From positions 32,001 through 96,000 of the IMG/VR virus record IMGVR_UViG_3300027795_000039: a stretch of 64,000 nucleotides of DNA; one strand, given 5' to 3'. A model generated the notes under the pieces. It ran no database searches, had not been told where the DNA came from, and saw only the letters and a program-made list of their open reading frames with translations. The position numbers and the translations under genes were made by a program. This document shows, piece after piece, positions 22,508 through 31,486 of this stretch. Each line of letters begins with the position of its first letter. Within the stretch, counting starts at the first letter, position 1. The stretch is from a virus.

Positions 22508-23836
22508 TTACACGTCATTATCTGGCATAACAACACTTAGGTTTACTGTTCCGTCTGCATCCACACTATCTACACGATACGTGGTTCCTCGAGGGAGGAT
22601 ATGCTCCTGTACTCCCTTATCACCGTTTACCATGTTGTACCCACGTGGTATGGTAATTTTCATCACGCGAGGAGTACCAGGTGTTATTTTCAAATCAACG
22701 AGTGGTGATTCAGTTTGCCCAGGCTGCAGTTGACCAGCGCGCGCGTAAGCAAAATTAGTCGCTTCTTCTTTGCTTTCAGTCGTTGATCCAAATGCTTTGT
22801 CGGTGAATTTCATACCTGGTTTAAGCTCAAAATCAGCGGGAGCTGACATTCCACGATACACCGTGGTATCTTGTCGTGCCCAGCTTTTAGCGATTGCACT
22901 ATCTAGGATCCCGATGTCACCGCTTACACCAGACAGATATGAACCGTCACCTCGTCGCAGTGCAGGGTTAAAGTAATCAGCGCCACCACTACGTGGTCTT
23001 TCGTAATCCTTTAGTAGGTACTTTTCTGGGTTTGATAGCTTACCAAATGGTGCATCTGGGTTATCTGCAACGCGTTTTGGCTCAGACAACGTCATTCGCT
23101 TAGACGCACCAGGACCAGGGATACCATCATATTTAATACTATTAGATAGTTTAAATGCTTGAGATCTTCTCAAACCAATCGGTGTATCTTTGTTGTTAAC
23201 GTGCCACGCTTGAGAAGCCAAATACAGATGATGATATGCCAGCGTTGGTGAACTATTATTAAGCGCTTCTTCTGCCTTAGGCAAGTGCTTACCGACAATT
23301 TTTTGCTCATCTTCTGGCAAGCTAGTGAATTGTTGTTGAATAGCTGGATCATTACTCAAAATTGAGAAGTGATCTGGTTCCACTTTATCGCTAACGACAT
23401 CTTCAACGTGATTAGCTGGTGTACCAATCGTTTTCTTTGGTGGTTTTACACCATCTTCACGTTGTGTTTTACCAGAATTAAAGTGACCTGCCAATGTTCT
23501 AACAGCAGTTTCACGGTCTTTATGAGATGAGGTATGACCATCTGAGTGTGTGGCCGTGTATTTACCGGTAATACCGCGGTCAACGCGACCAACACTGTAA
23601 CCAGACGGTTTATGTACCACGGTGCCATCACGTTTTACTGACAGATCGGCTGTTTTTAGCTTATCTGGTTTATCACCACAAGGAGGACGCACGCAGATGA
23701 AGCCGTGGATATACCCTTCAGCACCAACCTTAATGACATCTGGTATCACTGACATAAGTGGCATCAGTCGCTCAAACGCACGTTCATCTACCTGGCGCTT
23801 GGCGTCAGATAGATTACTGAACAGCGAAGCGATCAT
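22508..23836 (-). CDS. Tagged VIP2-like ADP-ribosyltransferase effector
   Basis: Same N-terminus and tag as 12908-14266; NPALRRG, VYRG, GSTT and QEHILPRG motifs. Confidence 0.82.
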   Translation of the reverse strand: MIASLFSNLSDAKRQVDERAFERLMPLMSVIPDVIKVGAEGYIHGFICVRPPCGDKPDKLKTADLSVKRDGTVVHKPSGYSVGRVDRGITGKYTATHSDGHTSSHKDRETAVRTLAGHFNSGKTQREDGVKPPKKTIGTPANHVEDVVSDKVEPDHFSILSNDPAIQQQFTSLPEDEQKIVGKHLPKAEEALNNSSPTLAYHHLYLASQAWHVNNKDTPIGLRRSQAFKLSNSIKYDGIPGPGASKRMTLSEPKRVADNPDAPFGKLSNPEKYLLKDYERPRSGGADYFNPALRRGDGSYLSGVSGDIGILDSAIAKSWARQDTTVYRGMSAPADFELKPGMKFTDKAFGSTTESKEEATNFAYARAGQLQPGQTESPLVDLKITPGTPRVMKITIPRGYNMVNGDKGVQEHILPRGTTYRVDSVDADGTVNLSVVMPDNDV

Positions 23837-23842
23837 GATGCC

Positions 23843-24640
23843 TCAATTATTCATGCCGATGTTGAGCGCCTGGTGGAGAGTGGGGATGAAGGAGTTGTTG
23901 TCGATGGAAGCGTGGGTGATGCGATGAGTACGATAACCTTTTTCAAGATGATATGTATCGCGTTTTGCATCATGTACCCGAGCCGAATGAGCGGTGTGAG
24001 CTAGACCATCGATTTCGATGTCTAGATTACATGATGGAATAAACAAATCTATTTCGTGACCGGTATCGATGTAATGTGGATCATATTCGATACCAATTTC
24101 ATCTAGATATGTCGCTACAATTGACTCATACGGATACAGTGGTGTATTTTTAAGCAATTGAAGCATGCGTTGCTTCGCTTGCTCACGATGCCCTTCACGA
24201 TCCCAGTGATACAACGGTTGATTAGGATCATCCCAGAGTCGGCGAGCGATTTCTGCTTGTTTTTCACGCTCTGCTGGGTCTTCGTACCGTTTGATCATCA
24301 TCTGACGCTGCGGTTCACGCATCTCAGGATTATTACGGTAGCTTTCTCGACCTTTCGCCTGAGCTGCACGAAATGTTTCAGTTTCACGGAACCGTCGTTG
24401 CGCCTCGTGCCATGCTTCTGATTTATTCGCGCCGTTAGAACCTTGTTTTTGGACTTCAACACCGGCATTAACGAGCAATTCTCGTGCTCTCCAATATTGG
24501 ATATCGTACAGCTCACCGAGCCTGCTTAGACTACCAGTGCGTTCATAATCAGCTTGAAGCTGTTCTCTACTAAGAGCAGACGCCGCCAGAAAATTTTGTT
24601 CGATTTCCTGGCGGCGCTGCTTACCACGATTATTTCCCAA
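23843..24640 (-). CDS. Free-standing DUF559/Vsr-like (EDxHD-type) endonuclease
   Basis: IDLF...IEIDGLAH...HDAKRD...GYRTHRI; paralog of the intron ORF 27253-28068; upstream TTTCCA-N17-TATAAT. Confidence 0.78.
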   Translation of the reverse strand: MGNNRGKQRRQEIEQNFLAASALSREQLQADYERTGSLSRLGELYDIQYWRARELLVNAGVEVQKQGSNGANKSEAWHEAQRRFRETETFRAAQAKGRESYRNNPEMREPQRQMMIKRYEDPAEREKQAEIARRLWDDPNQPLYHWDREGHREQAKQRMLQLLKNTPLYPYESIVATYLDEIGIEYDPHYIDTGHEIDLFIPSCNLDIEIDGLAHTAHSARVHDAKRDTYHLEKGYRTHRITHASIDNNSFIPTLHQALNIGMNN

Positions 24641-24716
24641 TTAACTGGACTCTTGTGGGATAATTTGGCTCACCAAATTATTATACCATAGAGAAATGTC
24701 ATTGGAAAATAATATA

Positions 24717-27700
24717 TTATGAGTATGGCGTGGTGTCCGATACTTGACAGTAAACTTTGTTACCAGTAAAATACTGGGCTAAGTCGTTTCCGCTTAGCTC
24801 TACGTGTTTCCACGCAGCTCAGACTCTCTCTTCATCTCGTTACACGAGAGCATCGTACATAGTCGTTGAACCTTCCCATCGCTTTCGCAGGTGGGCTCGG
24901 CTGCTGATTTTCCCTACTACCAGCTTCTCAAACCATCACGCTCATGTTTTCACATCACGTTGTGGTGCTGATATTTAATGGGAGGTTCCAGCAATTCTCG
25001 ATGTTATTGCCCGTTTCTCGCGAAACGGCGACCCTCACATTGTCGAAAGGCCTTGTAGAATTCCGGAGTAGAATGGCGCGTAGCTGACGAGCGCTCCATA
25101 GCAAGCTGTTACTACATGATTACTCATGCGACCAGATCGTTTCCGTCTGGTTCTCATGATTTACCATCTCATGAGATCGGACTGTCTCTTGATCTGCGAT
25201 ATTAACCACGTAATGCCTCGTAGCTGATATCATAACACAGATCCGGTACATACAGTCTCTGCACGCTGGTAGGCATTACCAACGCTCAGGATTCCCTATT
25301 ATAATGCAGGTAGGGTTCCCTGAACAGTACCGATTCACTTATTCTGTTACCAGAATAGTGCCCCTAATAAACGAGGAACAATGAATATCGGAAGGACGCG
25401 TCAATTACAGGCCACGCGATACTAACATAATCCTGGACGCCTTTTTGTTACTTAATTGAGCCATTATAGCTGCAATTAGAATTGGTCATTTCTGCCAATT
25501 TCTTACTATCTCCAGTAAGAACAGAGCACATCTTCATCCTGTTTCCAGGAGCCACGTGCATGCTCGTTGAACCTTCTCGTCATCATATGATAGGCGAGCT
25601 CGGCTGCTGATTTTCTCTGTCATTAGTTTCTCAAACCATCACGCTCGGTTTTTCAACTCACGTTGTGGTACTAATGCTTACCGAGATGTTCCAGCAATTC
25701 TCGTGGTTTATCATTACTCGTTACCGAGTATGGACCCGCTAATTCAGGTCATTTCCCAGGCATTCAGTATTGTTAAGTGCATATTAATACGCACTGCTTA
25801 GTCATTTCTGCTAAGCTCTGCATGTCTCCATGCAGCTCAGCCCATATCTTCATCCGTAAAGGACGCACCGTACATGGTCGTTGAACCTTCCTGTCGCTTT
25901 TTAAAGCAGGCAGGCTCGGCTGCTGATTGCCCCTGCTAACGCATTCTCAGGCATTCGCGTTTGCATTTTCATGCTACGCTGTAGCTGCGTTAGGTGGTAC
26001 GGGTTTTCCAGCAATTCTCGGTGTTTTCACTCACTCGTTACCGAGTGAGGCGCCAATTTTTACTTAGCGACGTTCGTCCACGTCTGCGGCAACTGATACG
26101 TTTGCAGCAGTGCGGTGCCTTGCGTAAGCCACGGGTGAACGACGAGGTTAAGGATAGACCGGGTAATCGGGTTCTGGAACTGCGAAACCGCCGCACCGAT
26201 CTTAACGCCACCAACATCAGGCTGGTCAAGGAACAGCCGGTAGTTCGTGGCTGCACCCTGGCTGATGATGTCGGTGGAGAGGCGCATGAGGTCGCCACCG
26301 TCGCCGACGATTTCCGCCGGGTCAGCACGGAACGCGCCTGGGTTGGTGAAGACGGATTCCCACAGTCCATCCAGCGCCTGGTAAATCGCGTTGTAGGAGA
26401 GATGGGTGCCGACATTCGGGTTGTAGTAGCCACCCTGCCACCCGGATGGGTAGACACTGGAGGTGGCTGACTTACCGGTCAGCGTCGGGATGATGCCTTC
26501 CATCCTGGTGTTCGCGCCGGTGCCAGTGTCGGTCGTCGGAGCGGTGGTGCCGATGGTTGGAATCGCACCCTGGAGCGTATAACGGACACCACCAACACCG
26601 GTGGCCATGCGGTACTGGTTACCCGCGCCCGTGGTGGTGCTGGCATAGATGTTGTACTGCAGCCCCGCATTGACGTATGGGATGGTAACGTCAACAACGC
26701 TACCAGTCGTCAGGGTGATGGAGCTGTTGGCGCTGCTGGCAGCCGTTTCGCCGTAGTAGTTCGTGGCGGTGACAGTGACGTACAGCGTGCCTGAGGTTGG
26801 AGAGAGTGGAGTTTCATTGGAACCTGCGGTACGAAGAGTGCAGGTTGGAGCGGATGGAGTTGTTAGCTTGACGCTGGAGTGGGAGAGCATTGCATATTCT
26901 TCGCCCCATTTTGTTACTCATCACTTACGTGATGGGGCACGTTATTTCTACGTGCCTCTGCAGGTTTACCATACCAGCAGTTCGGACTGTCTCTTAATCC
27001 GTGGCTAATCATGCATGTCGCTTCACATAAATTATCCGTAGCGGATTCGGTACATACAGTCTCTGCACACCATAAAGCGTTATGGTGCTCACGATTCCCC
27101 AGTAACATGGTGGGGTTCCCTGAACAGTACCATACATCTACACAATTACTTGCGTAGCGGACCAGCGATGATCATCATCTCTTGCAAGAGAATCAGGGAT
27201 GCCAATGCACTTACATCTTCGAACGGAGTTGTTACTTCCTAATAACTGAGAGTTATTTACTCTCATTGTCATCATCAGGAGAGCAGGTCATTTCTGCCTG
27301 CTTCTGCATTTTTTCCATCAATGCAGACCGGACTATATCATCGTCACTTTTTCGTCTACCAACTTGTGCCGACCGTAGAAGTCCATACGTACGTTGAGGT
27401 GAGCGAATTGTACATTCTGGGTTTTCTTCCGCTGGAATGCTGAGTGATCTAACACATTCATCCGCATGAGCGAATATGTCTTCAGCTGCGAATCTTACAA
27501 TTTCTATCCCAGAATCACGTATCTCTCGTGATCGCTTTACGTTGTACTCTTCCATAACACGATCTGGCTTAGCATCAATTTCGATAGCGAGAAGCCGGTC
27601 ATGAAGAAGTACATCAACGTAGTATTTACCACGTAGTACGATGGCATTTGAGGTAAATGAAACTGACGCTCGTTTAAGAGCATCTTGCAATTCAGCTTCA

Positions 27701-29848
27701 GCGGGCGGCAAGTAGTCAACACCAGTTGGTGTTTCTACAGGCCGAAGCCATTCTTTACGTCGTTGCCACTGAGCGAGAGCAATTTCACTGAGATTTTCTT
27801 TCCATACTGGATCATTCCAGAATTTTCTCTGTGATTCATACCACGCTTCAGTATGACGAGAACCGTTACATCCACGTTTCTGGATTTCGATGCCAGCTTC
27901 TACGAGCCACTTGCGTGCCTCGCCATAGTTAACACCGTATTTTGCGCCAAGCTTTCGCAAGCCGCCGGTTTCTTCGTAATCCTGTTGAAGCTGTTCTTTG
28001 CTAAGTGATGTGCTGCGTGTAGTCTCTACGGAGTCCCCAGGCTCTGGGGTTCCCTCGGTATTGTCCATTAATTTTATCCTACCACATGGTAGGGAGAGGA
28101 GTCCACCGATATAGCAGCATTGTCATCTGCCTGTTACCAAGCAGCGGGGCCTCGAAGATAACTTTTAGTAATAGAAAGTTACTCTCTGTTAACCCTGGCC
28201 GGCGAATTGCGCCAACCACGAAAGCGCTTCGGTCAAACCGAAGAAACGGTCATTTTGTTACTCATCGTTTAAAAAACGATGGGACTAGTCATTTCTGCTA
28301 GTCTCTACGTGTTTCCACGCAGATCAGACTATACCATAATCTGATGTAAATCAGACTCCGCGCGTCTAGTCGTTACGGACTCGCCAATCACTGGATGCAA
28401 TTGGATTGCCTCGGTATTGTCCACATAACCACTGATTTTCATCAATGCGAAGGAGTTTCACCGATACAGCGCGGTTTGCACTCACACATTACTGCATGAG
28501 GCCCCTACCATTCTTCATAGCGAGGGAACGTTCAAATCTACTTCCGTCTGCGAGCCAGACGGCGGTAGATTCATGGGCCAGTTCGTCGCACTCATGGTCC
28601 CAGAGTTTTGTACCAACTCTGGTATACTTATATCGACGACCCCTTGACCACCAGTTTGTGATCCACTGATGCCCGTGAACACCTTCGCTTGCCGTGCGGT
28701 ACCTTGACCAGCAGGACGAGGAAGCTTATTACGAAACACCGTATACACTGGATTGTGCTGTTACCTTCACGATCACTCGTGACGGGCTGGTCATCTCTGC
28801 CAGCCTCTTACGCTTTGACGTAAGACCAGACCATATCTTCGCCCGCCTCAGCGGGGTCGCGTGCATGGTCGTTGAACCTTCCCATTCTCATCCCGAGGAG
28901 TGGGCTCGGCTGCTGATCATCCCTACCACGTATTTCTCAAGCATTCGCGCTCATGTTTTCACATCACGCTGTAGCATACGTGTCTAACAGGAGGTTCCAG
29001 CAATTCTCGCGATTTAATCACGCTCATTACTGAGCGGAGATCCCTCCACTTGAGATCAGCCGCGAAGGTGCGACACTACTTCGCATTCAAGTGGAAGACA
29101 CACGCGTTACCGCGTGAGGACCCCATCGCAATGAAAGGTCGAACGGAACAAGGCCGGACACTGATCCAATGCCAAGTGCTAATTGTTACTCATCACATAG
29201 TGTGATGGGCCTGGTTGTTTCCACCAGACTCTGCAATTTTACCATCATTGCAGTTCGGAACGTCTCATGATCCATAAACGTTGTACTGTAGCATCTCAAT
29301 ACGCGATTCATCATGGATCCAGTACATACGTTCTCTGCACTACGATAGATGCCATCGTAGCTCAGGATTACCCATAATATGGAGGGCTTCCCCTGAACAG
29401 TACTGTTATCAGCTACTCGTTACCGAGTGGCGGGGCCACTTGACCCAGCAGTGAAACTTTTGGCAACTTCCGCCCCACCCGGCATGCTCGCCAGCAGCTT
29501 CTGGATCTGCTCAACAGGCGACGGGGTGTTTAGCGCAGTTGAGAGAAAACCTCTTTGCGCTAGGAAATCTGGACTCATACCCTTAACAACACTCGGGCGG
29601 TCCGTCAGACCTTGGTAGATCGACGTCCTGAGATCCAGCGTTGCCTGTGCTGATCGCATCAGGATTTCGCCTGGGTCGCTCAGCGGCTGGTTGAGGCCCT
29701 GGGCGTAGGTACAGCCCTTGACCAGGGTGGGCATACGCGACTTGATAACGTCGCTTACTGAGCCGGAGCGGTGTGCTTCGACTGCAGCCTCCCGTCCCGG
29801 GAGGCTAAGGTCGGGTCCAATCGGGACCTCGACGGTGGTGGTAGCCAT
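24717..29848 (-). CDS. Major capsid protein, spliced from 11 exons (608 aa)
   Basis: Exons 29848-29443, 29178-29136, 29075-29053, 28753-28523, 28250-28192, 27223-27171, 26906-26066, 25764-25746, 25440-25374, 25101-25048 and 24747-24717 join into a 1827-nt open frame. Capsid identity is inferred from synteny after the prohead protease. Confidence 0.82.
24748..25047 (-). ncRNA. Group I intron I10 (300 nt, IC1-like type)
   Basis: P AATTGCTGGAA, Q AATCAGCAGCC, R GTTCAACGACTA, S AAGAGAGAGTCT; U.G at the 5' splice site and terminal G. Confidence 0.9.
25102..25373 (-). ncRNA. Group I intron I9 (about 272 nt, IC3-like type)
   Basis: TTCAGGGAA, AATCCTGAGC, GTGCAGAGACT and AAGAGACAGTCC; the 5' splice site may be 3 nt upstream. 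Confidence 0.88.
25441..25745 (-). ncRNA. Group I intron I8 (305 nt, IC1-like type)
   Basis: P/Q/R/S elements with compensated P7 (GAGC/GCTC); P1 GACCT/GGGTC. Confidence 0.9.
25765..26065 (-). ncRNA. Group I intron I7 (301 nt, IC1-like type)
   Basis: AATTGCTGGAA, AATCAGCAGCC, GTTCAACGACCA and AAGATATGGGCT; P10 AAT/ATT. Confidence 0.9.
26907..27170 (-). ncRNA. Group I intron I6 (about 264 nt, IC3-like type)
   Basis: TTCAGGGAA, AATCGTGAGC, GTGCAGAGACT and AAGAGACAGTCC; 5' splice site uncertain by 3 nt. Confidence 0.86.
27224..28191 (-). ncRNA. Group I intron I5 (968 nt, IB-like type) with an endonuclease ORF
   Basis: TATCGGTGGA, AATACCGAGG, CCGTAGAGACTA and ATGATATAGTCC; 9-bp P10 (ATCTTCGAG with exon TTCGAAGAT). 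Confidence 0.92.
27253..28068 (-). CDS. Intron-encoded DUF559-like endonuclease or maturase
   Basis: YYVDVLL...LAIEIDA...KRSREIRDSGIEIVRF; AGGA site; overlaps the intron core elements. Confidence 0.75.
   Translation of the reverse strand: MDNTEGTPEPGDSVETTRSTSLSKEQLQQDYEETGGLRKLGAKYGVNYGEARKWLVEAGIEIQKRGCNGSRHTEAWYESQRKFWNDPVWKENLSEIALAQWQRRKEWLRPVETPTGVDYLPPAEAELQDALKRASVSFTSNAIVLRGKYYVDVLLHDRLLAIEIDAKPDRVMEEYNVKRSREIRDSGIEIVRFAAEDIFAHADECVRSLSIPAEENPECTIRSPQRTYGLLRSAQVGRRKSDDDIVRSALMEKMQKQAEMTCSPDDDNESK
28251..28522 (-). ncRNA. Group I intron I4 (272 nt, IB-like type)
   Basis: TATCGGTGAA, AATACCGAGG, CCGTAACGACTA and ATGGTATAGTCT. Confidence 0.9.
28754..29052 (-). ncRNA. Group I intron I3 (299 nt, IC1-like type; apparent terminal A)
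   Basis: AATTGCTGGAA, GATCAGCAGCC, GTTCAACGACCA and AAGATATGGTCT; P1 GATCT/GGATC. Confidence 0.88.
29076..29135 (-). ncRNA. 60-nt core-less group I-like mini-intron I2
   Basis: P1 GACCT/GGGTC, 7-bp P10 (TGCGATG with exon TGTCGCA), GTAA-loop P2 hairpin and terminal G; no P/Q/R/S elements; in-frame TGA. Confidence 0.7.
29179..29442 (-). ncRNA. Group I intron I1 (264 nt, IC3-like type)
   Basis: TTCAGGGGAA, AATCCTGAGC, GTGCAGAGAACG and ATGAGACGTTCC; P1 GGGT/GCCC; P10 CAAGTG/CACTTG. Confidence 0.9.
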
Positions 29849-30057
29849 AATGGCCTTTCATTTTTGGTTACGCGTGATTTTCAGCGACGCGCGGCGCGCC
29901 GCTTGCTAAGAAGTGTCGAGGAATGTTGTCGTCATGGTTATTATCCTTACTGGTTTACGCCAGCCTCAGCCAGCAACAGCACGCTTCATCGTGAAGCGTG
30001 CTGCTTTCATTCTGATGCGGCATCCCGCCGCAGTTAACCAGACCCGCTGGTTAAAGT

Positions 30058-30687
30058 CTATTCATCATCTTCATCGTCTTCATCATCGTCGCCATACTGT
30101 GATGATGAATCGTCATCTTCATCAAAGTTTTCATCCAGCTCATTACCATATGGCATTGGCTCATATGACTTATCACCATGCTCAAGGTCCTGGTAACCAT
30201 CTTCAGCACCGTGCTTCTCGTCATAACTCATTTCATCGTGAGACTTCCAACTAGCCTGTTCACGCGAGATTTCTGGTGTTGGTTTATAGGCCTTACCAGT
30301 AACACCGGAATACATCTTCTTAGCGCGATCAATGGTATTGTCACCAGCTGTAGTGGTAGAACGCGATCGTACACCGTGCCCAATTGCACGATTAAGGTGA
30401 TTCACAGCTTCATCGTGCTTACCAGCATCCAGCGCATCAGCAGCTTTACTAAATGCCACTCCAGCCTGATGATAGCGAGTAATATCACCGCCGTGATAAT
30501 CGTTGTCTTCTGCTTCGCTGTGCATCTTATCGCTCATGGAGCGTAGTTTTGTTGAAGCCTTACCAATGCTACTAGCATCATCAGTACCAGCGCCGACTTT
30601 TATCCAGCCGTGAATGTAGCCCTTCGGGCCAACCTTAGTGACATCTGGTTCAGCAACGTTCTTCGTAACTTCCTGTTCCGACTTCAT
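30058..30687 (-). CDS. Small tagged protein with an acidic tail, probably leaderless
   Basis: TGGTATAAT 6 nt before ATG 30687; VTKVGPKGYIHGWIKV. Confidence 0.75.
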   Translation of the reverse strand: MKSEQEVTKNVAEPDVTKVGPKGYIHGWIKVGAGTDDASSIGKASTKLRSMSDKMHSEAEDNDYHGGDITRYHQAGVAFSKAADALDAGKHDEAVNHLNRAIGHGVRSRSTTTAGDNTIDRAKKMYSGVTGKAYKPTPEISREQASWKSHDEMSYDEKHGAEDGYQDLEHGDKSYEPMPYGNELDENFDEDDDSSSQYGDDDEDDEDDE

Positions 30688-30799
30688 ATGATCATTATAC
30701 CACAAGCGCAGCCGTGTGGACGCATCATCATGAACTGACCGGTGATCATATGGTGCAGGAAACATCAGCTCACGATCCTCATATTAGTCGACTGGTGAC

Positions 30800-31486
30800 T
30801 TACCTGGTGCCACTAACCTCGGCCACAACCGCCTGGATGTGTGAGAATGAAGCCGCGAATCCGGGATGCAGCGGCAACATCTGCGCCTCAGCTGCGGTAA
30901 CCCATTTGGTTCCAACTGATTCACTGGCTGTAGTCGCATCTGACGCGTCCGGCGTAAACGTGGCAAGTGACTCAACCAGAACCGTGTGGTACTTCCAGCC
31001 ACCATAGTTAACCGTGATCACCGCGGTGTGCTCGAGGTTGCTGATGTGAGTTGAGCCAAGTTCTTCAGCAGCCTCACGCTTAGCACCCTGGATGGGTGAT
31101 TCACCGTAGTGCAATCCACCACCTGGCGTGCTCCAGGTACCAGATAGGTTCACACATTCACCACGCTGCTGCAACAGGTAGCGAACTTCGTCATCCGCTC
31201 CGTGGTTGTAGATGATCAGGCCTGCCGCACCATCGATACCGAAGTGTGACCTGCCGTGAACATCTGGCACGTAGTGCTCGCTGCTGTTGTCTGGCGGACC
31301 GCCTCGACCCATCTTGCCGAGCGTGGCCTTGATACCCGTGGAGAACCAGGCTGACGCCTTGTTGCCATCCACGTCGATGATCCTGCCGTACCGGTAACGC
31401 GGGTGGAAGATGATGCTGCCGGTTACCTCGCCAGTACGGCGAACGTACACCCAGCCGTTGATGCGCCTGTGCTTGATGATCCTCAT
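30800..31486 (-). CDS. NUDIX hydrolase
   Basis: Nudix box GGGLHYGESPIQGAKREAAEELG; upstream TGGTATACT and CAGGAACAGGAA. Confidence 0.85.
   Translation of the reverse strand: MRIIKHRRINGWVYVRRTGEVTGSIIFHPRYRYGRIIDVDGNKASAWFSTGIKATLGKMGRGGPPDNSSEHYVPDVHGRSHFGIDGAAGLIIYNHGADDEVRYLLQQRGECVNLSGTWSTPGGGLHYGESPIQGAKREAAEELGSTHISNLEHTAVITVNYGGWKYHTVLVESLATFTPDASDATTASESVGTKWVTAAEAQMLPLHPGFAASFSHIQAVVAEVSGTR

Follow-up and report, generated by a model that had tools for sequence, protein, structure and literature searches.

A 60-nt group I-type intron without a catalytic core in a viral capsid gene, possibly spliced by the core of the adjacent intron

The window analyzed here is a stretch of 64,000 nucleotides (nt), bases 32001–96000 of the 132,026-bp record IMGVR_UViG_3300027795_000039 of a soil phage, which is a metagenome assembly, placed in the provirus class in IMG/VR and 93% complete. 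On its minus strand a capsid gene starting at position 29848 is interrupted by group I introns, and between the second and third exons of this gene lies a 60-nt insert, hereafter the mini-intron, which carries the splice-site elements of a group I intron and no recognizable catalytic core. The capsid identity of the gene was taken from first-stage notes on this DNA. When its largest exon, encoding 285 amino acids (aa), was compared with 1.84 billion representative proteins, 159 relatives were obtained at E ≤ 0.001, including uninterrupted proteins of 550–635 aa. No Pfam family was found for either of the two capsid exons scanned, and the annotated phage collection gave no match to the gene by megablast or to the large exon by tblastn.

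Rebuilding the gene from the coordinates gave 11 exons (406, 43, 23, 231, 59, 53, 841, 19, 67, 54 and 31 nt), which together make up 1827 nt encoding 608 aa with a terminal stop codon only, and the product is colinear with the homologues at 47–55% identity. The gene is single-copy, no second copy being present in the 132-kb genome. All ten exons that precede an insert end in T, and G is the last base of nine inserts, the exception among the ten being intron I3. The nine inserts other than the mini-intron are full-length introns, all of which have a P2 hairpin capped by GUAA and two of which contain open reading frames (ORFs) for homing endonucleases. In the whole window, the Rfam family RF00028 recognized five introns above its gathering score and a sixth just under it, all on the minus strand at 24800–29067, and cmscan of 23000–31000 at E ≤ 1 returned 6 RF00028 matches. 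Intron I1, which precedes exon 2, shares 76% mean column identity with I6 and I9, the latter being an RF00028 match at 48.8 bits.

The need for removal of the mini-intron was evident from the homologues. Nine full-length relatives of 550–635 aa read ..SGLVPFDL-VAPSRLI-YPVY.. without interruption in tblastn, whereas the window has exactly 20 extra codons between PFDL and VAPSRLI, one of which is TGA. If the mini-intron were retained, it would be read in frame and the ORF would end at residue 166 of 629. The original prediction, made from the letters of this DNA alone, had stated that the in-frame TGA makes removal necessary, and the extra codons, the early stop and the presence of a single capsid gene bear this out. 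Since the mini-intron interrupts an essential single-copy gene, we infer that it is excised from the capsid message. Judging from the exon phases, a message with exon 2 joined directly to exon 4 would be out of frame, so exon skipping was rejected as a productive route.

The elements that define the splice sites are all contained in the mini-intron and the exon ends. P1 is formed between GACCU at the end of exon 2 (29140..29136) and GGGUC in the internal guide (29123..29119), giving 5 bp with a U.G pair at the junction. Directly 5′ of this guide strand, TGCGATG (29130..29124) pairs with TGTCGCA of exon 3 (29075..29069), giving a P10 of 7 pairs including two wobbles. The P2 hairpin was predicted in all four folds, and the arrangement of P1 and P2 (5-nt guide strand, 2 nt, 6-bp stem, GUAA) is the same as that of I3 in both lineages in which the mini-intron was found (see below). 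A P1 guide followed by an adjacent P10 of at least 5 bp arose in 592 of 200,000 shuffles, while the window has 7 bp. P1, the adjacent 7-bp P10, the GUAA-loop P2 and the terminal G thus all lie where the original prediction had placed them. Its assertion that a catalytic core is absent also held, since no RF00028 match was obtained at E ≤ 1 in 29076–29135, nor in the counterpart L008:3626–3678. Likewise, no P7-like helix with a bulged base beside a G-C pair was found in the 60 nt or in the folds. Of the group I hallmarks, the mini-intron therefore has the U.G pair in P1, P10 and the terminal G, and has no P3–P9 core with a guanosine-binding site. The 23 nt left over after P1 and P2, which end at G29076, offer no space for a core and pair with exon 3 and I3. 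Taken together, the features support assignment of the 60-nt insert as a core-less intron of group I type. When its ends were aligned pairwise with the nine sibling introns, no clear candidate for a parent intron emerged.

The pairings of this 23-nt tail were examined on both of its partners (Table 1). Within it, TCCACTTGA (29095..29087) has its complement in TCAAGTGGA (29053..29045), and with wobbles the duplex, designated Pa, extends to 12 bp, its partner strand being the last base of exon 3 and the first 11 nt of I3. Complementarity of the tail to the 5′ splice site and guide of I3, as well as to the start of I1, had been pointed out originally, and both are present in the sequence. TCCACTTGA is also complementary to TCAAGTGG at 29443..29436, a match that arises because the start of I1 forms the P10 of I1 itself with CACTTG at the beginning of exon 2. 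Pa has 12 bp in the window, against 10 bp in the second lineage, and was predicted in the 116-nt and 108-nt folds. Among 20,000 shuffles, 0.085% (0.00085) gave 12 or more consecutive complementary positions between the tail and the I3 head; the value for the run in the second lineage was 0.0034. The other tail helix, Pb, joins the tail to the middle of exon 3 by 7 bp in both lineages, appears in independent folds of both, and has the terminal G together with the 3′ splice site within its loop. Pa and Pb together form one long interrupted hairpin, the stem of which covers two bases of the I3 P1 guide and the whole I3 P10 guide. Because the P1/P10 guide of I3 is occupied in this way, the tail hairpin and the P1 of I3 would be mutually exclusive.

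As a separate observation on the guides, those of the mini-intron (GGGGUCCU, 29117–29124) and of I3 (GGGAUCUC, 29037–29044), both on the minus strand, are complementary to each other with wobbles. This guide–guide pairing is drawn in the 116-nt minimum-energy fold of the window and is absent from the fold of the second lineage.

Table 1. Positions of the mini-intron, its helices and the neighbouring exons and introns in the window (all on the minus strand)
Feature	Position	Strand	Description
Core-less mini-intron	29076..29135	-	60 nt; TGA at 29089..29087; terminal G at 29076
Internal guide	29119..29130	-	P1 strand GGGTC and P10 strand TGCGATG
P2 hairpin	29099..29118	-	GUAA tetraloop at 29110..29107
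Pa, tail strand of duplex with I3 head	29087..29098	-	pairs with 29053..29042
Pb, tail strand of helix with middle of exon 3	29079..29085	-	pairs with 29067..29061
Exon 2	29136..29178	-	43 nt, ..S-LGIGSVSGLVPFD-L; closes with GACCT (29140..29136), the 5′ strand of the mini-intron P1 (tblastn, exon model)
Exon 3	29053..29075	-	23 nt, V-APSRLI; coding kept in homologues; L008 reads LAPSRLI
Strands within exon 3	29075..29069; 29067..29061; 29057..29053	-	P10; Pb; P1 5′ strand of I3
I3	28754..29052	-	full group I intron, 299 nt; RF00028 50.7 bits in the window; P1 guide 29043..29039
I1	29179..29442	-	full group I intron, 264 nt, I6/I9 type

In order to place the mini-intron among its relatives, 62 related loci, obtained by scanning IMG/VR with the peptide of exon 4, were inspected. 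The motifs PFDL and APSRLI are directly adjacent in 56 of them, 5 could not be scored by motif search, and one, L008, has an insert. This insert (L008:3626–3678) is 53 nt long, lies at the same junction as the mini-intron of the window and ends in G, so that the proposal to look for the same mini-intron in related genomes was answered with a shorter version at the same site. The nucleotide identity between L008 and the window is 71–76%. As 53 is not a multiple of 3, the insert of L008 must be removed as well. Downstream of it come the same 23-nt exon and the same full intron I3 (RF00028, 65.7 bits). I1 is missing from L008, in which the only other intron of the gene lies ~650 nt downstream, and the role originally suggested for I1 thus found no support in a lineage that has both the mini-intron and I3. 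Accordingly, the mini-intron and I3 occur together in 2 of 2 lineages, with I3 23 nt downstream, and neither was seen alone among the 62 loci. In every lineage that has it, the mini-intron is therefore found directly upstream of a complete intron, with which it has the specific contact Pa.

Two further loci, L063 and L064, are 100% identical to L008 and hence not independent. A pattern for the I3 head was found in IMG/VR on the contig of L008 only, and searches of IMG/VR with the mini-intron pattern and two looser patterns gave, among the matches listed, only that contig besides chance matches; of the listed matches to one of the looser patterns, only two unrelated stretches remained after filtering. 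A metagenome scan returned L064 and one unrelated contig (L065), and a scan of genome contigs returned one locus, L066, in a metagenome-assembled genome (MAG) of Actinomycetota. No other insert shorter than 200 nt was detected in the 62 related capsid loci by chained tblastn, in which in-frame, stop-free inserts could hide within alignments. A search of sequencing runs pointed to 5 DNA runs and to no RNA run with this stretch, and reads from three runs assembled only into short pieces of relatives, none of which covers 29064–29251. At the protein level, five further clusters end in PFDL[N/K/D]GVLA[R/S/P/L]stop. Such tails are the read-through expected from the same guide, P2 and GUAA loop, and may stem from mini-introns or from full introns.

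Covariation between the two lineages was evaluated in a MAFFT alignment, in which the pairs of P1, P10, P2 and Pa were counted. Of 60 cells, 58 were paired, with four double changes, of which P2 has two and P10 and Pa one each, whereas sliding the partner strand by 1–3 columns as a control left 33–48% paired and no double change. P1 is invariant in L008. P2 has two double compensatory changes and zero broken pairs, and P10 has one double change, one one-sided change and one broken cell, with 4 of 5 pairs kept in L008; the change in P10 tracks the replacement of GTC by CTT, a coding change, in exon 3. In Pa one cell is broken, two pairs changed on one side only, and one pair changed on both sides, from A-U to G-C. 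The columns of Pb were misaligned by MAFFT, and its pairs were therefore counted by eye from the sequences and folds; a double change from C-G to U-A, which makes up for a synonymous difference in exon 3 (TCG/TCA), brings the total to five. Judged by this comparison of sequences, the mini-intron is under selection as an RNA. The own P2 of I3 shows two double changes between the lineages, and the G-C pair in the P7 of I3, taken as its guanosine site, looks unchanged. The 3′ end of I3 differs between the lineages, being A (28754) in the window (..GGTAACAGCACA|ATCCAG) and G in L008 (..AACGTG|ATCC). In the window the frame is restored only if I3 ends in A (T|AT = Tyr).

On balance, these features make it probable that the mini-intron is a helper-dependent group I intron, which would be spliced by the core of its neighbour I3 before I3 splices itself. 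To the more specific proposal that a single core acts on both introns one after the other, in which the tail would disable the substrate helix of I3 so that the mini-intron goes first and I3 second, we give about an even chance. In this scheme, the tail duplex would block the P1 of I3 and leave the folded I3 core with a vacant substrate cleft. The P1–P2 module of the mini-intron, which has the same geometry as that of I3 and would be tethered beside the P2 of I3, could then dock in the I3 core. Both transesterifications would be carried out by that core, namely attack of guanosine at GACCU|U followed by attack of exon 2 after G29076. Excision would carry the tail off and release the I3 guide, upon which I3 would splice itself. 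The mini-intron would thus contribute the substrate side only, i.e., the P1/P10 guide, the GUAA-capped P2 and the terminal G. The order of splicing matters because the frame would be lost if exon 2 were joined to exon 4. That the pairing blocks the P1 of I3 and so enforces this order had been predicted; the pairing is conserved in L008 and the two structures exclude each other, which would be in agreement with an enforced order.

Use of the I3 core is the most economical mechanism we can propose for the removal of the mini-intron. Costa and Michel are said to have shown in 1995 that tandem C:G pairs serve as docking sites for GUAA loops, and the P8 of I3 presumably has such pairs. It has reportedly also been possible to supply P1–P2 or other domains in trans, in work attributed to Sargueil and Tanner (1993) and to Doudna and Cech (1995). 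An engineered Tetrahymena group I spliceozyme, which excises a foreign intron in trans, indicates that the chemistry is feasible (PMC4094466), and tandem Tetrahymena introns around a 24-nt exon are described as cooperating though individually inactivated (PMC10136302).

Several observations weigh against this reading. Only two lineages are independent at the DNA level, and in a shuffle control, which is weak with two sequences, 30 of 500 shuffles reached the observed covariation values. The covarying I3 base in Pa (29048) is also the P10 partner for exon 4 (CCA versus CCG), so that exon 4 may have driven the change in I3 and only the matching change in the tail counts as independent evidence. 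The 5-bp P1 guide alone is unremarkable (35,860 of 200,000 shuffles), the mini-intron folded alone has ordinary stability (z = −1.13 and −1.05), and the 116-nt minimum-energy fold of the window does not contain its P1. Because it ends in A, I3 of the window may itself splice poorly, and the 19-bp tail duplex might delay release of the excised piece. Finally, the present evidence does not discriminate between the core of I3 and another core acting in trans.

The last point leads to the alternative in which the mini-intron is helper-dependent but is served in trans by I1, I8 or free excised introns, which are abundant during infection, the tail duplex only delaying I3. All sibling introns have a GUAA-capped P2, I8 has the same P1 sequence, GACCU/GGGUC (exon ..ATGACCT, guide GCGGGTC), and the start of I1 shows 8 nt of complementarity to the tail, all of which would suit such a helper. 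However, L008 lacks I1 and has just two full introns, of which I3 is the one 23 nt away, and exon 3 and I3 provide the sole conserved, covarying contacts of the mini-intron outside itself; we consider a trans helper unlikely. It is more doubtful still that the insert is the dead remnant of a full intron after a recent deletion, or an assembly collapse, such that the capsid gene is broken or the intron is really full-length. The metagenomic, 93% complete provirus record, the A at the end of I3 and the short identical words shared by neighbouring introns, which could mislead an assembler, would all be compatible with that explanation, which the original prediction had kept as its alternative. 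Against it, the 71–76% identical L008 has the same architecture in a 53-nt version with many substitutions and with compensatory changes in P2, P10 and Pa, all 11 exons are open and colinear with the homologues, and five more protein clusters have the same read-through tail. That the two versions differ in length, have diverged by ~25–29% and show five double changes argues against a recent deletion or an assembly collapse as the explanation of the insert.

Could the mini-intron instead be an autonomous minimal ribozyme, aided by pairings with exon 3 and flanking RNA, as is claimed for the 63–75-nt introns of fungal rDNA? Harris and Rogers report that a 67-nt intron splices in vitro but needs ~300 nt of 3′ flank, and describe P1, P10 and a pairing of the intron with the 3′ exon, PM (PMC3160393); a helix between intron and 3′ exon exists here, too. 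Such autonomy is very unlikely for the mini-intron, in which the P7-like helix is missing, the tail bases after P2 are all paired with exon 3 or I3 up to 3 nt from the end, and a complete ribozyme lies 23 nt away in both lineages. Removal by proteins, i.e., by a host or phage endonuclease and RNA ligase recognizing the hairpins, is highly improbable, as the conserved features are those of group I splice-site choice (the U.G pair in P1, the adjacent P10 and the terminal G) and P10 changes together with the exon. To our knowledge, no protein-only splicing of mRNA exists in bacteria or phages. The least credible explanation is that the mRNA retains the insert, which ribosomes would jump by a bypass of the T4 gene 60 type. 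A short gap within an essential phage gene, with a stop codon inside it, would fit such a bypass, and in L008 CUC before the gap and CUU after it could in principle be take-off and landing codons. In the window, however, no matching codon is present 60 nt downstream (CTT versus AGT, GAC versus AGT), the first stop comes 17 codons into the gap instead of next to the junction, the solution for L008 would drop a conserved Leu, and the covarying P10 and P2 would have no role. Translational bypassing was therefore rejected, the take-off and landing codons being unmatched and the stop not directly following take-off. Splicing of the mini-intron with the help of I3 remains the reading that we prefer.

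Some further observations concern the gene and its relatives. The 45 nt encoding GLVPFDLLAPSRLIYPVYTV are a hot-spot for introns, relatives having introns at no fewer than five positions of this segment: before LVPFDL and after FDL, LLAP, RL, YPV and YTV (loci L013, L029, L049, L050, L055, L056 and L057; protein tails P0153–P0271). In our judgement, the introns of other relatives near the site of the mini-intron are at different positions. Many database proteins of the capsid family are N-terminal fragments ending at the hot-spot positions; gene callers fragment such capsid genes, and many truncated N-terminal proteins of the family stand in public databases. Within the window, intron I5 (27224–28191, minus strand, 968 nt) contains a DUF559/HTH endonuclease ORF, the start of which (MDNTEG..) lies inside core-like sequence (..GGACAATACCGAGGGAACCCC..GTAGAGACT..). 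Rfam recognized I5 as a fragment only (27306–27342, 9.4 bits), and the same ORF start within the core recurs in L029 and L049. Just downstream of the endonuclease gene of the last capsid intron, an ORF at 22511–23842 on the minus strand matches Pfam ADPrib_exo_Tox (E = 7.5e-06). As to the host, L066 (CAVQPP010000306.1) is the sole relative of the capsid exon on genome contigs and belongs to a MAG labelled uncultured Actinomycetota, a faint indication of the phylum of the host.

A group I intron is by definition one that brings its own ribozyme. If the proposed dependence on I3 is true, the arrangement would amount to a spliceozyme acting in cis in nature, with the mini-intron as the first group I intron that is non-autonomous, in the manner of a miniature inverted-repeat transposable element (MITE) relying on a full transposon. 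Ribozyme and substrate would then be separable in nature and not only in engineered systems, selfish introns could decay to non-autonomous riders as transposons do, and base pairing could program a single core for two sites in order. In the open-access literature (papers without their supplements), we found no core-less group I intron dependent on a neighbouring intron, in phages or elsewhere.

Among known systems, the ordinary phage group I introns of RF00028, for which we take T4 td, nrdB and sunY as examples, resemble the mini-intron in insertion after U, P1, P10, P2 and the terminal G. Unlike them, the mini-intron has no P3–P9 core and hence is not a self-splicing ribozyme of RF00028. The group III and mini group II introns of Euglena plastids are drastically shortened derivatives of self-splicing introns, presumably dependent on functions supplied elsewhere. 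They differ from the mini-intron in intron class, chemistry and host, and we know of no specific pairing between them and a neighbouring helper.

The closest likeness in size is to the small degenerate group I introns in the nuclear small-subunit ribosomal DNA (SSU rDNA) of fungi, such as PaSSU of Phialophora (63–75 nt) and those of Arthonia (63 nt) and Porpidia (78 nt), for which origin by internal deletion of a full intron has been proposed (Harris and Rogers 2011, PMC3160393). At 56–81 nt, as given there, they belong to the same size class as the mini-introns (60 and 53 nt), and both share P1 with a G.U pair, P10, a pairing between intron and 3′ exon, and loss of most core helices. Of the features by which PaSSU is described, the mini-intron has the size, P1, P10 and, in both lineages, a 7-bp helix between tail and exon 3. 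It has no P7-like helix with an unpaired base and no terminal U, and its site is not position 1516 or 516 of nuclear SSU rDNA. The fungal introns thus reside in rRNA genes, end in U and are drawn with a P7-like guanosine site, whereas the mini-intron resides in a phage protein gene, ends in G and has no P7 that we could see. In addition, the fungal introns are reported to self-splice when flanks are long and have no neighbouring intron, while the mini-intron pairs with a full intron 23 nt away and, unlike the fungal ones as depicted, keeps a GUAA-capped P2.

In terms of the proposed mechanism, the mini-intron and I3 are comparable to the spliceozyme, in which a core excises a core-less intron in trans and joins the exons, and which works in E. 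coli (Amini, Olson and Muller 2014, PMC4094466). As described there, the spliceozyme is man-made and recognizes both splice sites by its own guide, whereas the mini-intron carries the guide itself and would offer a ready P1/P10. In terms of arrangement, they resemble tandem introns separated by a very short exon, namely those of Twort orf142 (23-nt exon), Coxiella 23S rRNA (34-nt exon) and the engineered Tetrahymena constructs (PMC10136302). These tandem systems share with the mini-intron and I3 a spacing of ~23 nt and an interaction between neighbours; in them, order and guide specificity decide between inclusion and skipping of the exon, and the inactivated engineered introns are reported to act as one large ribozyme. 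As presented in the same source, however, both partners have complete cores, whereas the mini-intron has none, and skipping here would break the frame. The present locus contributes a gene with ten introns and a covarying tail pairing that engages both the short exon and the guide of the putative helper.

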